64,000 nt of DNA from Piedraia hortae CBS 480.64 (GCA_010093745.1 MU005972.1:1-64000), one strand, 5' to 3'. Positions 3,637 through 12,082 are shown, counted from the stretch's first letter. The notes: generated by a model from the letters alone, not told the origin. Program-made: numbers and translations.

Positions 3637-4212
3637 CTACGATAGACTCAAAACCCCATTCACCATCCACACCTCACCGTTGGCTACGCGGCTGATGATC
3701 TTTTCCACTTCTAGATTAACGGGCTGAATGATTGTTTTGTCTTCCTGATTGCTTTCCCACCACAACTCCTTACCACCCAGGGTCTTGACCTTCTCGCCTT
3801 CGATCCAAGGTGATACAGGCACAATATGAGCTTCTGTAAATCTCCTCAAGTTACGTGCTGCTCGATCTTCTCCCGCCTGACCTTGATATGCCTCGGCTCC
3901 CATTTGGCTATATTCCGCAGGATCCTCCCATGGCTTATGAGGCAAATCATGTAGGGCACTGTTTGAAGGGGCCAGGACCGTACTATTCTCGCGCTTGGAA
4001 TCAAGGCGCTGTGACACACTATCTACGTCTCGTGTGAACCCAGCAAAGATTGTCGTCGCGCGCTCAGTGCCGAGGACGTCGGACAACAAGACTGAGGGTG
4101 CTGCCATTAGGCGCCACGCTGCGTTGTTGTTACTGTTGCCGCTGTTGGAAAATGGCACAACTAACTGAGCATAAGCGGAAGTAAGCAAAAGTAAAGTGCG
4201 TAGAGCCTTCAT
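3637..4212 (-). CDS. Secreted FAS1 (fasciclin) domain protein
   Basis: Signal peptide MKALRTLLLLTSAYAQ, fasciclin H1 motif TVLAPSNSA, HIVP, and H2 motif NGEVWMVNGVL. Confidence 0.85.
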   Translation of the reverse strand: MKALRTLLLLTSAYAQLVVPFSNSGNSNNNAAWRLMAAPSVLLSDVLGTERATTIFAGFTRDVDSVSQRLDSKRENSTVLAPSNSALHDLPHKPWEDPAEYSQMGAEAYQGQAGEDRAARNLRRFTEAHIVPVSPWIEGEKVKTLGGKELWWESNQEDKTIIQPVNLEVEKIISRVANGEVWMVNGVLSLS

Positions 4213-5458
4213 CTGTTTCGTTGTTGTTTGAACGCCAAGTCTAATGACAGCGGGGGGAAGCACCCCGCATCGTGCAGATAGACTTTAATTACGCAGTCGA
4301 ATCGAGTTTATGTCTCACAGTCAAACCTGGGCATAGGGGACACTGGATACAGCGGGTTGTCTCTTTGTAGCAGATCTTCAGCACCCCTGTGATCATTCTT
4401 TCTGCATCCACCAGTAAGTACATACCTGGACTCAGCGGATCCCCAACACAGCAAACAGAGTGACCGCGTCAGACTAATCTGCTGTAACCGGGTTTGGCTG
4501 TTTGTAGTCAAGGTTCAGATACTTGCTTACCTGGCTAGACTCAAGTTAAATCTTGAACAAGACGGCCGCTGCAGCCACAGCTTGGGACTTGACAAAAGCA
4601 AATTCGCACTGAGTTCGTCGATGGTTACAAGAAATGCACGAACAAGTAGTATAATGTGTATGTAGGATATAACAGAGTGTTTGCCTGACATTGCAGTGCC
4701 TCATTTTGCTTCGTCTAGAACTAATTCGCAAACATGGATGTGTTTGTCCAAAAATATTGTTGGTACATCATTAGGAACGGGCACTCCATCAAGGGTGATG
4801 CAGCATTGTTATGAGAGCTTTTGTTCGGCATGTGAGTGCCATTGTGCAACGCGGGAACTCATTGACTTTACAGGCATCTATGATCTGTCTCATTTGGGAT
4901 GTATATGCAAGTCGAGTGGAAAAGGTTATACATATGTAGAAGGAACTCTGCTTGATTAACTTGCATAACTTTTTCAAAGAACCCCGCGTTGTCAATGACC
5001 CATATGGCCTTTGAGATTCGTTGAGGCGACACTGAATTCCCTGTACATGCTGCTCGATCAGTCCCTGCACATCTGAAATGTTAGTGTGTCAATGGCAGGA
5101 TTACATGTATGATTGTCATGCAGTATCTGTGTCGAAGGATTCGATAGTTAACTCGGCCCGCTCCATAGTGGGCTTGGCTTTTTGTTGATTTCAAACATAG
5201 GGCATCGAGTGCCATTGCTGATAACCACGAGTGGTTCTTAGAGCCATCACTAATTCCAATGAAGTACACCAATTGGGCTGGCCATCATTGGTCGTATCTC
5301 TAGCGTTGTAGTCATCGTTTATGTCGTTGTTGAAAGGTGCCAGCGAGGGCTTGGCGTGCAAATGCAGGATAGGTAACGGATCGAGGGATATGTGGACGTT
5401 GGATAGGCAGTTGTCTGGAGCATGAAAATTTGCAAAAGCTCATGGAAAGCTTTGATGA

Positions 5459-8361
5459 ATGACTACTGTGATCCAACTGTACACATCATCTTGCAAAAGG
5501 GTACCTCGACACATACAACGTGCGCTTACAGCATGGCAAAACTTTCGAGAACAATTACTTATATATGAGTCCCCTGATTGTAGTCTTCATGCTAGTATTC
5601 ACCCGACGACAACTGACGACTGGCACGTGACTGGGTCTGTAGATTTAACACCAACGCGACTGTTGCACTATGGCAGCCACAAGCGCGAAAAGGAAGTGCA
5701 TTTTAAAACTTGCTTGGGTAACTTTGAGTGCCCAGTCAGCAATTGCGAGTTCTCCGAGCGCCCTAAGATGCCTGTGTTTAACAAGCACAAGCACATGTAT
5801 CCACCGCCCACCACAACCAGGTGCCGTTTACCACAACGTTGAATTAGCCCACATACCATACCGGGCTACTATAGAGACTAGCACAGACGGTACAACGATG
5901 GAAGTCGTTCACCGAGGACATCACACCCATCGGCGGCCCCACCCCATCAGGGCTGATCTCCCTTCCCTTCGGGAGCTCGAAAAGAATGTGCGGTTTGCAC
6001 CCGAGATCACGCCCAAAGCCTGGCAAATTGGCCAAGAATGTCGACCGTCTGTGGCCCAAAGTCATCCGGCCTAGTGCTCTCTTTCAAGAGTAGACTACAA
6101 ACCACGGGAAGCGTTGGCTGGAACCAGGGCAGACAACTTTCTTGGGGCATTATTGATTTCCTGGAAGGACTCGGTGTTGATGTTCTCTTGAGCCATAAGC
6201 TTGTTGGACCTGGCCGTCACTTCTCGCAGCAGACCAACATGATGAGGGAGGTGCTTCGGAACCGAGAGTCGCCGTTGGAAACGGACTCGCTCGACGGATT
6301 CCTTCTTGATGACTACGGCGTATCGGCAAATCTGGCTCATACTTTAGGCTATAGTGTAGCCCTGAACCGCAGTCCCCTTCTTGGTCACAATCTTGATGGG
6401 GAGGAGTAAAGAACACTAACAGGAGCACCTTGCGGAGCTATTGAAAGCTCTGGAAATGCCGACCAATATTCAAGAATGGACTGATGGTATGAAGCATTTT
6501 CCGGGTAATACAAGCGATTTGTCTCAGGTCGAGCTAAAGGGCTTCGAGCTTGCTCTTTGCGCCCACTGCGATAAAAGCACCAAGGATTTTTCGGTGAACG
6601 GCTTCTTCCGTCGCTGTGAAGTGCACTTCAAGAGAAGTGTAACCACAGTGGCAAAGAACGGCTCGATCATCCCTGCGATGGAGACCACGAGCTTTCGGGA
6701 CCTTGCCTGGAGTCTCCTCCCCGACCAGCCATATGAGGACTTCAGGGATGAAGTCGAGCATATGGCAACCACCTGTCTGCAGATCAAGCCCTGGCTGTAC
6801 TGGTTCGTCAGCTGGAGCGAATTCATCTTTAAAGCGATGTCCGAAATTCGCATCTCTGGATGTCGGACACGTCCAATATCCAGGAGTTCCTCGAAAGGGA
6901 CTTCAAAAGGCACGCTCCAAAGGTAAACTGTCCATCATTGAAACCATAAGGTACCTCGTACATATGTCGCGCTTATCGACCTGGACATGTCGAACGTCAA
7001 GAAGGGAATGCTAATCAGGTACTCCAGGCTGGCACAAAAGAGAAAGTACGTGAACGACTGGCGGGCCCCGGATACCACAGAAGAACTTGTCAAGAAAGCC
7101 AAGAAAGGGCGGCCTTGAGGGAGCCAAAATGTCGCCTCGACTCTGAAGAGTTTATTCTCTCGATATTCAGGAATTCCCAGGGGGGTTGCCGGTACGAGCA
7201 GTTTCAGGCCAGTAAAACGTATCCTGGAGACATCGCTCGACAATCCCTTTGGCTGCTAATCCGGTCGGCGGCTTTGGTGGAGGCCGAGGATGTTGACCGG
7301 CTCCGAGAGGTCAACAATCTCATAAGCCGAGAGGAGTACGCCGTGTTCAGTTTCGTCTGGTGCACAAAGGCGCTTGGATACGCGGCAATCGGAAGCTTTG
7401 ACTTGTTCGGGTCGATCAAGAGGCGCTTTGTAGACCATTGCCCCGAGCTTTTCGCCTTCGAGGCAGCTCGTGAGTCTAAGTGCAGACAGCCAACCTGCCC
7501 GAGCCACAAGGCCACACAGTCGAAAAGGATGATGGCACTGACGATCACTGGAAGCTCCCTCGAGAGGGTTGACCAGTCAGCCATCAACAGTATCTTTGGC
7601 GAGGGCAGCGAAGCCTGCAGTGTTCAGATCGAGGAGTCAGGTACTTGCCCAAGAGAGCGGGTCGCGTATAAACCGGTGGAGTCCCTCAAAGACGACGACG
7701 AATTACTTATGGCGGCACTCGATGATGAGGACGGTTCCGTTGCGCCCAAGTCCTGTGGCAAACAGGTGGCGGTATGTTCTGGTGTTCGCGACGGCGAAGC
7801 CTGAAAAGTGCTCTCGCTACCGACCCTCTTGGATATTGCTGTGCCAGTCCCGCGGATGGCTCGCAAACCTGCGCCAATCATCCAGCTCAGAGAGTAACAG
7901 TACGAACTGGCTGCGGTGGTATACCTTTGAAATGCGCACTTTCACGGCCACACCGTTGTGCATGATGGATTCCTGTATTATGACGGGAAGGCGCAGAACA
8001 GGCTGTCGTTCTATACGAGGGCCATGAACGAGAGGACGAACTATCGGATCTCCAGAGCGTGGTGTCGCAAGTCCGGATCGCCACCATCGTGCGCAGCTCA
8101 GGGTCCTGAGAAACCCACTGCCATCACGAAAGAGATTCTGCCATTGCTTCAGGAAAAGAAAAGTCCAAGATTGCGCGCCCCTAATGCCACATCATACCCG
8201 GTAGGACTGTCCCTACGAGACATCTCTGCCAAAGGACCGCTGCCAACATGTGCCGGTTGCCGAGAGAAAATGTCGCGACAGGAGCATCGGCTAGTCTTCA
8301 ATGGCAAGAATGACGGAATGTATGGCCATCCGTCAAATCGTTCCATCTGGTAATAAGCTGT
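5459..8361 (+). mobile_element. Decayed Mutator-like (MULE) DNA transposon ORF: GCM-like DNA-binding domain, DDE transposase, protease-like and zinc-finger C-terminal domains
   Basis: Collinear motifs across frameshifts and stops: KTCLGNFEC...RP...HIPYR...HRGHHTH (GCM-like, about 5700-5930), ETD (6278), NTSDLS (6507), CEVHF (6615), DTSNIQE (6866), YVNDWRAPDT (7047), YELAAVVYL*NAHF...YYDG (7901-7987), CAGC...RL...FHLVISC (8249-8361). No TIRs or TSD identified. Confidence 0.75.
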
Positions 8362-8910
8362 TTGTCGGGGAGATTGAGCCTGAACGAAAAGTCACAGCTC
8401 CAGGAATTGATGCAGGGACACGATCATTTGTATGACTTGTGCCTTACGTTGTAATATTAGTTCTCGGAGAAGATTATTAATGCGTTCTGCTTCGTTTGCG
8501 CTGAGTGTAGAAGTGTGGTTGAGCTGGGAGCTTAGTCATCTTAGCAGACTAGTAGTCGTTTCAGACCCGAGAGGCCAGAGGGCATAAGGAACGGAGCTAT
8601 GCGGTGTGCGCTACGCTATACTGCCTAAAAGACTAGAACAACGCGTGAAGAGCAAAAGGGCGACTGTCTCGGTGGTTTATGATCGAGCGGGCTGTGCCGA
8701 AGTCACGTGACTGGAATAGGGACTAAGATCCTCACAAGTCGCCAGGTGAATGCAAGCCCATCTAGCACCCCATAGGGATGTAAAACGCAACGAAATTGAA
8801 TACAAGCCTGAAGACTAAAATCTGCAACCCCTTATATATGCGTGTTAAGATATAAGCCTCTTGACAACAAAGTGGTCGTAATTGCTTTGGTTCGATATGT
8901 AATCGTTACC

Positions 8911-11612
8911 CTATGCTATTCGCTCATAAAGCAGAATATAGGCAACTTTGTTGTCCTTCAATCCTTCCCTTTTGGAGACTGGCGTATGCCTTCCACCAGG
9001 TGTAGATGTTCCATTACTCGTCGTCTGCTTCTTCCCAGCCTGTCCATTCACCTCCGACCAAGGCCTTCCCTCACCCTCGTCCGCAAGATGCTGCTCCAGA
9101 GCTCGCGCCAGGAGCCGCGGATCTTCGTCAGCACCACCATCGGCAACGTCTTCTGGACGAACACGGCGAATCACCGTATCATCTATGCGAATCCATTCCC
9201 TGTTGTCTTGGCGCAGCACGTCAACCGTATAGTGTCCACCGGCAGCCGACTTTCCGTGATGATAGACAACGCTGATCAGCCGATACCGAGGCGGAGTATC
9301 CTTGTCGCCTCCTCCAGGTCGCTTACTGGGCAGAAACACCTCTTTGGGGATTTCCAATTCCAGCGGGTATCCCACCCTTTTCCAGATCTTCTGCGTTCCC
9401 CGAGAGCTGTTATCGTACTGAAATCGCTTAAGGTGCAGTACAAGCACAGGAGGCAGTTTATCGATAAAGACCTGCTTCTTCGCGCTCTTGTTTTTGCCGC
9501 CAAAATCACCCGTAAGGGTTTCCACCCGCGTGATGCCTTTGAGAGCATCCACAATGTTGTTCACATTAGCATCGCCAATATCGAGCTGCAGCGGCTTATA
9601 TGGCTCCAAAGTCACTGAGTCCTTGAGGCCGGGAACACGCAGTTCTGAGCGCAGGTTGCCACCAAAAATCTTAGTGATCGGAGACGGCGCTTCTTGATGG
9701 CCAGCAGTGCCAGTCACCGAGACCTTCTGCTTTGGCCGAACCTCGAGCCAACCGTCGACTGGCTTTTCGTCTTGACTCTCCGGCTGGGATTGCATAACCA
9801 TGGCACACTCATCGTGAAGGCCCTCGAGCAGAAACCCCAAAAACTCTTCGGCATCCTGCTGATGCCCACGACGCATGTTGCTGAAGCGTGGCAGTTTTCT
9901 GATGGCTTCATACACATAGTCTGGCGTCGCCGGCTCCCCAAATTGCTCGAGCTGAATCGGCTTGAGCGAGCTTCGCAAAACATCCACCGACTCCGCGCTT
10001 TCCAACACTTCAAATTCACTCATGAACATGATCAAAGCATCAACTAGAGGGGTATCGCTTTTAACCGAATGCACGGTGCGCTGTTTAACCTGATTAAGAA
10101 AGTTGTAGAATGGGGTGCAAAAGACCAATATTTGCAAAACCTGTTGAACGTCAACCGTACTCTTGCTTGGCAGGTGTTTTCTGGACTTACAGCGTTCATG
10201 TAACACATGTTACCTGTGTTGACAAGTCCACGCGGCTGGAGGAAGGAAAGTTTTGGGTTGGCGGCAACCGAATATTGCCTGAGGGCTTCCGAAAGAGTGG
10301 TAGCGTGAGGTAAGGCTATGCCATTGGTGACTACGGCACTGTCGGCTTCGACCTTTCCCGAGTTGACTGGAAGTCGGACCAGATCCGCCCAAGTCCGGGG
10401 CACAGCTTTTGGTGAAGCAACCGAGGGCGCCGCAGCAGTTTTACTGGATGAGGCATCAATGCCATTGACGGGTGAGGAGGCGTTTGTTGTTGGTGAGATG
10501 GGACCGTGGGCTGAGGGCAGATTGGGCGTCGGCGGCACCAAGGCAACAGTGCTCGCAGGCTTAGGAACGACAGCCTCTGCCGTTGGTGACGCTTGCTTCT
10601 TTTCCGCCACCTTGGTCGAGGCTTTTTTGAGGTTGGGCAAGTCCGGGATGGCCACAGCCGTTCTTGTGCTCATCCGCATACGCGTTGCCTGCGAGGGCTG
10701 CTGTGTAGACTTTTCCACGCCGTTAGGCGTCTGCGAGACCACAAGACTTGAGGCCTTTGCTTCAGAGGATGGTTTCGAAGGAGCTGTTGTTTCCGGAAGA
10801 ACGTTCGGAGGTGTTTCGGTTGCAGACATTGCATCTGCAGGAGCAACATCTCTCAACGATGCTATGGCAGCAGTTTGTGGGGCGCGTGTATCAGACTCGT
10901 TGATCGACAGAGGCTCGGAACCCAATTTGGGGTTTGCCAGCACCCCGGCATGCGGTGCCGGATTGCGCCAATTCTGCCGCTTTCTCCTCCTCGACACGTC
11001 CTTTGGTGGGAAAGCTGAGGCACCGCCGGGAAATGAATAGAAAGGCAACTTTGGTGTGAAAACGGTGTGGCGCCCTTCAGGGAGATCTAGAGGGCTCGAT
11101 AGCGCAGATGCTTCGGCGCTTTCCGTGACCGGCAAAGGCTGATGATCGGGGCCAGGAATCGCATGCGGCGCTGGCGTAGGCGAATGAGACGTGACCGCAG
11201 TCGAGGAGCGCGGCGTGTGTAATGGAAAAGCGCGTGGAGACTGGGCAACATGATTGGCGCCCATTGACACGGCATGTTGACGACCGGTGGCGTATGGTTG
11301 AGAACTGACGACTGTTGGTGTCCGTGGAGGACCGCACGGTACCTGCGGCGGATGAGGTTGCGGCGACATATAATGTCCCTGATAGGGGGACCGGAACTGG
11401 TGCTGCTGGTAGCCGTGGGACGGGTGCGAATAATAGTGGTGGTAGCTTCCATAGGGAAGCATAGCCATCGGCACCTGCATTGGCGACTGCTGCGAATGGT
11501 GGGGGTAAGCGAGATAGTCGTGGTGTCGCCGCCTCGACTGTTGGGGCATGACGGAAATTGGGGGCGCAAACGCCTGGGGCTGCCCGGGAGGGGGCCCCAT
11601 GTGGTGGTTCAT
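8911..11612 (-). CDS. UBP3: Ubiquitin-specific protease, Ubp3/USP10 family; intron 10190-10141
   Basis: Cys box GLVNTGNMCYMNAVLQ (spliced), QQDAEEFL, and His box VVYHHGKSAAGGHYT, after a long Pro/Gln/His-rich N-terminus. Confidence 0.92.
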
Positions 11613-12082
11613 GCCGCCTCCGCCTGCCACTGCGGCAGCGCCGACTTGGCCGGCGGCTGTCGACACCCTGCGGCACTGCTCAGGACGCGGCGGCGGCGTG
11701 GGCGCGCGGCGACATTGAAGAGATGATGTTTCTGAAGCCGTTTTTGCGCGCGCAGGGAGGGAAAACGCAACACAATCTGCCAGGAACGATGGCGAAGGGA
11801 GCGGAGCAGGCGCGCAGCTCAATGGAAAGCAACACGCGAAGGCTGGGGTTGACAGCAACGGAGGTGGAAGGTGTAATGTATGGTACGGTGCGGTAGCTGG
11901 AGCGGGAGGGGCGCTGAAAGAAGTTTAACCACGGGAGCTCCCGAGGCCACGTATGGCCCAAGCGTCTATGAAGAGTTCGGTTTCACCCCTCACTCCACCA
12001 CGGTCCGTGCTGACTACAACTGCCCGTTCAACGTTCACACACCCCTCCATCCTCTACACCTTTGATCACTCCCATCTCTTCA

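Follow-up and report, generated by a model that had tools for sequence, protein, structure and literature searches.

A broken gene for a probable MuDRF-type transposase with GCM and USP-fold domains in Piedraia hortae

The analyzed stretch of DNA from Piedraia hortae CBS 480.64 (64,000 nt, hereafter the window) contains a single broken transposase gene on the plus strand (5567–8451), which comprises a GCM-type DNA-binding domain, a DDE core, a USP-like domain, and a CxxC finger in this order. The best explanation of the whole, including the mechanism proposed below, is that the gene very probably represents the best-preserved copy of an extinct family of MuDRF-type cut-and-paste transposons. 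The copy makes no transposase now.

The broken gene and its domains

The extent of the gene was determined by tblastn of intact relatives, a profile search, and a list of the stops. It sits in a gap of 4.7 kb, flanked by a fasciclin-like gene (3637–4284) and a UCH/USP gene with an open frame (8911–10209), both of which are encoded on the minus strand. Several motifs had been named in an earlier reading of the sequence alone, and translation of the window located all of them at the places given there, in frames 2 and 3 of the plus strand. They start at 5705 (KTCLG), 6278 (ETD, Asp at 6284), 6507 (NTSDLS, Asp at 6516), 6615 (RCEVHF, Cys at 6618), 6866 (DTSNIQE, Glu at 6884), and 7047 (YVNDWRAPDT). 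The same reading had let the gene end at 7130, and this had to be revised, as tblastn and the profile extend it by a further 1.3 kb to about 8451. At the other end, the profile match starts at 5669, and the start at 5567 was placed by eye from the similarity of ESPDC to EYPNG of the family.

Four intact single frames from relatives (P0158, P0165, P0012, and P0019) were collinear with positions 5669–8451 in tblastn, with the frame switching at the breaks. At least six frameshifts were found (near 5828, 6147, 6373, 6850, 6927, and 7170), and one more is probably present near 8320. In addition, there are seven in-frame stops, at 6072, 6417, 6939, 7116, 7802, 7895, and 7928, so that the earlier description of the element as a fossil was correct. 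Introns were rejected as the cause of the breaks, because the relatives align collinearly and have no insertions. A profile of 14 relatives, built without any sequence from the P. hortae genome, matched the window frames with 37, 312, 41, and 156 bits in collinear order, and the top domain score in a control with 20 base-shuffles of 5459–8450 in three frames was −2.5 bits. The match exceeds chance. Contigs of a run from another study (X2, regarded as RNA only by guess) span 5543–7001 and 6972–8627 with no differing letter and no gap, so that the breaks cannot be put down to misassembly in a single data set. The letters of the window also agree with a further run (X1), from which the window itself may derive.

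The GCM-type domain (5567–5950, plus strand) was delineated from the relatives' profile and the conserved Cys and His residues. It is of the two-zinc type and is split by the frameshift near 5828. A profile of the relatives (A4) matched mouse GCM1 (PDB 1ODH) with an E value of 2.3e-8 over profile positions 4–139, and the window retains eight of the nine conserved GCM Cys/His residues, while one conserved Cys reads Tyr. The DNA-binding domain proposed in the earlier reading was thereby confirmed by way of the relatives. Mouse Gcm1 is a host regulator, whereas the domain in the window is fused to a transposase and broken. Direct searches with the window yielded less. Pfam assigned no family to eight window fragments, the read-through GCM part, or two sibling pieces; a PDB sequence search with the GCM part gave no significant match, and the ESM Atlas gave no usable match for the GCM half. 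Among 40 relatives scanned, none reached the Pfam cut-off for GCM or MULE, and GCM appeared below the cut-off in four, including P0011 and P0012. A check against GCM and MULE profiles, as had been proposed, was thus negative for the window fragments and positive for the match of the relatives' profile to GCM1. The GCM, MULE, and USP identities of the window would accordingly be read through relatives that are 35–39% identical to it in the core.

The Mutator-type RNase H (DDE) core (6149–6925, plus strand) has kept all its catalytic residues, namely the Asp residues at 6284 and 6516, the CxxH motif from 6618, and the Glu at 6884. These are highly conserved in the relatives, i.e., in 97 of 101 (first Asp), 138 of 143 (second Asp), 142 of 145 and 140 of 143 (CxxH), and 95 of 95 (Glu). 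In the ESM Atlas, the clusters nearest to the window's own core carry PF10551 MULE (0.92–0.93, with fewer than 170 shared features), which is used here as a lead only. AlphaFold models of two full-length relatives, P0158 (pLDDT 86) and P0019 (pLDDT 73), were compared with known folds, and for both models ISCth4 (PDB 6XG8) was the top transposase fold (Z 11.7, rmsd 5.2, 240 aligned residues for P0158; Z 12.9, rmsd 5.3, 235 aligned residues for P0019), while Hermes, P element, RAG-like, and integrase folds gave Z values of 8.9–9.6. With Z values of about 12 and an rmsd above 5, this predicted similarity is moderate. In contrast to the window family, ISCth4 has neither a GCM domain nor a protease tail, and its identity to the relatives is 10–14%. 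We take it to be an IS256 / prokaryotic Mutator-family transposase. The residues, their conservation, the fold, and the Atlas lead all agree with the MULE-type D-D-CxxH-E core that had been recognized earlier. In the alignment of the relatives, the core is followed by the family motif NDGRxPDT, which reads NDWRAPDT in the window (7047–7079, plus strand).

The remaining two parts of the protein go beyond the earlier reading. A domain resembling USP-fold cysteine proteases occupies 7184–8080 (plus strand) and was identified by the profile match of 156 bits and the folds of the relatives. It is dead in the window: the Cys–His–Asp/Asn triad is incomplete, since the Cys position reads Tyr at 7220, while His (7937) and Asp (7982) are retained, and three stops lie inside the domain. 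In relatives that cover the respective site, Cys is present in 39 of 40, His in 23 of 23, and Asp or Asn in 22 of 23. In the models, USP folds occupy the top ranks for the tails of both P0158 and P0019 (Z 17–19); the P0158 tail aligns with USP35 (Z 18.8, rmsd 3.7, 245 residues), and Foldseek matched it to USP18 with an E value of 1.4e-10. The top Z values tie among the USPs, so that no nearest USP subfamily can be distinguished. The fold and triad of the relatives' tails are those of the USP (peptidase C19) deubiquitinases, such as USP35, CYLD, USP12, and USPL1, but identity to the relatives' tails is only 10–20%, and the Cys is lost in the window copy. Pfam UCH was above the cut-off in one of the 40 relatives scanned (P0045), and a viral fold library returned only general USP-like matches. 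Among 36 relatives of at least 750 aa, the alignment extends over the GCM domain in 27, the Cys box in 28, and the His box in 22. Other add-ons were also seen in individual relatives: a Ulp1/C48 protease (P0136), BRCT (P0119), PHD below the cut-off (P0134), and PF00385, presumably the chromodomain (P0175 and P0177).

The C-terminal region (8195–8451, plus strand; Cys at 8249) resembles a CxxC zinc finger and is collinear with P0158 and P0030. It is conserved in 19 of the 147 relatives among the matches listed. Pfam zf-PARP was found on P0034 alone of the 40 relatives scanned (E 0.011, 16.9 bits against a cut-off of 39.3), and thus, a PARP-finger label for this region would be a weak one.

Copies, decay, and neighboring repeats

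DNA and protein searches of the genome (16.9 Mb, 132 contigs) revealed 15 other places with members of the family, 13 of them by the profile of relatives and the remaining two (C119 and C29) through DNA and tblastn matches alone. The family is therefore dispersed in its host genome, which is a criterion of the MuDR/Mutator superfamily. Each of the 15 is either fragmentary or broken; the window copy surpasses them in completeness and covers 838 of 936 profile columns. The five closest sibling pieces are 74–79% identical to the window at the DNA level. The changes among the nearest siblings (61 C>T, 57 G>A, 54 T>C, and 42 A>G) comprise transitions in both directions and the RIP indices are at background, so that RIP was rejected as the cause of decay. 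Because of the sibling identity of 74–79%, the breaks in all copies, and the background RIP indices, we conclude that the family is old, extinct in this genome, and not RIP-mutated. Two family copies lie about 10 kb apart in opposite orientation on contig C86 (L081 3961–5241, minus; L019 4124–5236, plus), and they fall in different tree subgroups. A repeat of about 120 bp is common to L018 (9230–9356), L025 (1078–1205), and the ends of L027, with 84–100% identity.

A search for intact copies and element ends had been proposed as well, and its outcome was divided: intact relatives were found that are collinear with the gene, while the copies in the genome itself are all broken, and neither TIRs nor TSDs were found. 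An inverted-repeat search and reading of the flanks yielded no convincing TIR for the window copy. A 41-bp inverted match of 76% identity (5560–5600 / about 8798–8838) scores better than 60 of 60 shuffles in a zone that was picked after the match had been seen, and has an E value of 0.036 against the whole window. It was not accepted as a TIR, as its left arm lies in apparent GCM coding sequence, it has no extension, and an equally good unrelated match exists. A 42-bp inverted match of 79% identity (5373–5414 / 12016–12057), which brackets the fossil together with the host UCH gene, probably arose by chance and was likewise not accepted. No exact 9–11-mer is common to 4505–5560 and 8401–8935 (excluding the LTR described below) that could represent a TSD. 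The copies are about 20–25% diverged, and at its age the window copy could have lost its ends by erosion. Since no TIR or TSD was found for it, mobility rests on copy number and the protein family. Relatives were also located on metagenome contigs at seven loci; six of these are under 4 kb, and the long one (L074) contains no inverted repeat that brackets its gene. L074 also carries a small element at 4426–5212 with inverted ends (4490–4549 / 5120–5181) and, downstream of the transposase, a tandem array of a 14-bp repeat (8265–8379).

Two repeats close to the gene are separate from it. The repeat at 8559–8736 (178 bp) resembles a solo LTR; it has AGTCG on both sides as a 5-bp duplication and 32 other matches in the genome, and other copies have the form TGTCAG...CTGACA. 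It is a separate, later insertion. Its TpA/ApT ratio is 1.43, compared with 0.64 for the window, and no coding parent was seen beside 12 distinct other copies inspected. The second repeat (4316–4504) is MITE-like and flanked by TA. It has CAGTCAAACC-type, inverted ends of about 30 bp and at least six other copies, with five other matches in the genome and one in L028, and it is separate from the Mutator element. Both were considered as ends of the transposon and rejected: no transposase remnants were present near nine LTR loci, and besides L028 a single weak match (E 0.005, L030) occurred near five MITE loci.

The X2 contigs cover the fossil nearly exactly (5543–8627). One of them has 22 T residues that are absent from the genome directly to the left of 5543, which is a hint, from one contig of one run, of a polyadenylated minus-strand RNA antisense to the dead transposase. 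X2 coverage is absent at about 8726–8807 according to bin depth; this hole between contigs is not evidence in itself and would fit an RNA that begins in the LTR. Elsewhere in the window, three imperfect 40-bp direct repeats at 380–489, each with CACGTG-like boxes, lie upstream of a gene for an FHA-domain protein.

Family assignment and proposed mechanism

Mutator elements in which a single protein joins a GCM and a DDE domain have been known as MuDRF since 2011, and therefore, the earlier suggestion of an undescribed family did not hold. According to the accessible text of Cantu et al. (2011, PMC3164196), who named it, MuDRF belongs to the MuDR superfamily, has a 9-bp TSD, and occurs in rusts, Laccaria, Schizophyllum, Coprinopsis, and Naegleria, with no ascomycete among the hosts named there; MuDRF-1_PSt to -3_PSt are given as the Repbase elements. 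The window shares this feature, as it is collinear with the single intact frames of P0158, P0165, P0012, and P0019, which contain both domains. An unlabelled protein of the stripe rust Puccinia striiformis in the accessible part of supplement 8 of the same paper has, by eye, the GCM domain, the core, TNAQES, NDGRAPDT, and a Cys/His tail in matching order. The motifs around the catalytic Asp residues differ, with TDSxEGF and GNTxDFS in the window family versus SDVTY and VVDFS in this rust protein. Two further differences concern the text of PMC3164196 as far as accessible: it names no protease or finger, and it gives a 9-bp TSD, whereas none was found at the window copy. Membership of the window in MuDRF would follow from the published definition, and the rust comparison was made by eye. 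Because the rust protein has a Cys/His tail and the same order of parts but other Asp motifs, the USP-like tail looks like a feature of the whole MuDRF branch, and the window family looks like a separate subclade.

A similar architecture is known from plants. In the part of Babu et al. (2006, PMC1702500) available to us, MULE transposases are linked to WRKY-GCM1 folds, and Medicago elements with an OTU papain-like protease tail are described. These elements resemble the window family in having a Mutator transposase, a DNA-binding domain of the WRKY-GCM1 fold, and a cysteine-protease tail. However, OTU is not a USP fold, and their domain is a WRKY-like insert, as opposed to a true GCM domain here.

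For the active element, a single protein of about 900–1150 residues can be envisaged. Its GCM zinc domain would have bound the element ends, as suggested by GCM1 and the WRKY-GCM1 domains of other MULEs, and the D-D-CxxH-E RNase H core would have cut the ends and joined them to the target, a chemistry deduced from MuDR and from Cantu et al. (2011). On the same grounds, integration would probably have left a 9-bp duplication. The USP-fold Cys–His–Asp protease would most likely have stripped a ubiquitin or ubiquitin-like tag from the transposase or from chromatin at the donor or target site, and removal of the tag would shield the element from turnover or silencing by the host. The fold and the triad were found in relatives; the nature of the substrate is slightly favored over its alternatives, which are self-processing and SUMO removal. 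The terminal CxxC finger may perhaps have sensed DNA ends. The family would have spread in the lineage long ago, lost all its working copies, and decayed by ordinary mutation and not by RIP.

It was also considered that the locus is a domesticated gene or specifies a shorter product that still works, such as the 156-aa frame P0007 or a regulator consisting of the GCM domain only. It is the most complete copy of the genome, none of its D-D-CxxH-E residues has been lost, and contigs of X2, guessed to be RNA, span it, all of which would suit such a role. Nevertheless, no domain is free of breaks, one of which lies midway through the GCM domain, and the USP Cys as well as one GCM Cys are lost. P0007 contains just one of the three acidic residues, no splice joints are listed, and the sole loose poly(T) end, a hint from one contig, points to the opposite strand. 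A function of this kind is therefore very improbable, and a dead transposon copy remains the preferred reading.

Relatives, origin, and meaning

Relatives were collected with a profile of stop-free pieces of the genome's own copies (A3), which retrieved 549 proteins at E ≤0.001 among 1.84 billion. The analysis comprised the 150 of these that were listed, three from the genome itself and 147 from elsewhere. Word-indexed homolog searches with P0001 and P0005 found none, which is weak evidence. The organism was looked up for 30 clusters among the 147 non-own matches listed, and seven could be named (Plasmodiophora, Podila, Entomortierella, Linnemannia, Benniella, Lunasporangiospora, and Attheya), while two further clusters are MMETSP transcripts. 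The proteins of Entomortierella (GJJ71694.1) and Linnemannia (KAK5816331.1) are intact. A separate search added a relative from Spongospora, one of 17 matches. The five genera of Mortierellaceae bear out the association with early-diverging fungi that had been suspected from the sequence. None of the eight relatives with an organism name is an ascomycete; they belong to Mortierellaceae, plasmodiophorids, and a diatom. None of 170 candidate stretches in viral contigs was confirmed as a relative. As for the host, Raptor encoded in the window scores 1336 bits against PDB 6ZPN, a structure from Chaetomium thermophilum, compared with 937 bits against yeast Kog1 and 886 bits against the human counterpart, which points to a filamentous ascomycete; a fragment of Rpn5 did not discriminate.

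Trees were calculated from 286 core columns and included eight of 14 own copies, i.e., those with at least 110 columns. FastTree was applied to 101 rows (93 of 198 library rows remained after removal of short and >90% identical ones), and IQ-TREE, with a shortened search, to 56 of these; the tree was rooted on a distant row. Six of the own copies make up a clade with UFBoot 98 and an SH-like value of 0.89, and the other two make up a second one (100). FastTree unites the eight (0.84), whereas IQ-TREE does not, and all are within a clade of 19 rows (UFBoot 90, SH-like 0.98), of which the only named outside member is Plasmodiophora. The named taxa are mixed over the tree, and Spongospora falls, with low support, between rows from Mortierellaceae. 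Core identities of the window are 39% with P0165, 37% with P0158, and 34% with the proteins of Podila and Plasmodiophora.

The tree and the identities fit either old vertical descent with loss or an old transfer. Because the nearest relatives could themselves come from ascomycetes, we give descent an even chance and hold transfer to be a tentative possibility; what remains falls to mixed histories. Vertical descent would mean that a MuDRF subclade old in fungi was lost from most ascomycetes through RIP and small genomes and persisted here until its death. With relatives in Mortierellomycota and, from the accessible text of PMC3164196, MuDRF in Basidiomycota, the branch brackets the ascomycetes. 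Moreover, the own copies are about 32–54% identical in the core, as distant from each other as from outside relatives, which implies long residence, and the lack of a RIP signature here would have aided survival. On the other hand, no ascomycete is among the eight named relatives, and the one basidiomycete protein seen in the accessible supplement, that of the rust, is of the other motif type, so that the closest named relative does not come from the closest phylum. The first of these points suits an ancient horizontal transfer, in one or two events, from a non-Dikarya eukaryote of soil or water such as a Mortierellaceae-like fungus or a plasmodiophorid, followed by radiation and death. The 19-row clade with Plasmodiophora as its only named outsider, the mixture of taxa including the weakly supported position of Spongospora, and the division of the copies into a clade of six and another of two would be in agreement with it. 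However, the names cover seven of the 30 clusters looked up among 147 listed matches plus Spongospora, the closest relatives (P0158, P0165, P0009, and P0012) are metagenome proteins that could be ascomycete, and protein collections rarely contain dead elements, so that ascomycete copies would be hidden. In addition, identity is just 34–39%, deep nodes are weak, the root is distant, the own rows are decayed pseudogenes, and viral contigs yielded no relative.

The element is of the MuDRF kind already known and is notable for its ascomycete host group and the USP-fold tail, for neither of which a printed report was found. PMC3164196 was the sole relevant paper retrieved with the word MuDRF, and "GCM" has no occurrence in the main texts, as accessible, of the surveys PMC5751038 and PMC6446971. 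The literature covered, in which subscription articles, reports from Repbase, and supplements on bioRxiv are thinly represented, contained neither an ascomycete MuDRF nor a MuDRF with a USP tail. A much wider statement would be that a distinct MuDRF subclade from Mortierellaceae and from protists of soil and water entered a lineage of filamentous ascomycetes long ago and represents the first MuDRF known from the Ascomycota, and that all MuDRF-type transposases carry an active USP-fold deubiquitinase as a counter-defense against ubiquitin-based turnover or chromatin silencing. Taken jointly, these two propositions appear unlikely.

The window copy itself is dead debris, and its value is that of a record. 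It extends a little-studied Mutator branch, with a DNA-binding domain in common with the animal Gcm regulators, into a filamentous ascomycete, and two predicted structures suggest that this branch normally carries a USP-fold protease. If the protease acts on ubiquitin, the family would be a testable case of a transposon with its own deubiquitinase, and if the patchy host range holds, it would be a case of transposon transfer between distant eukaryotes.
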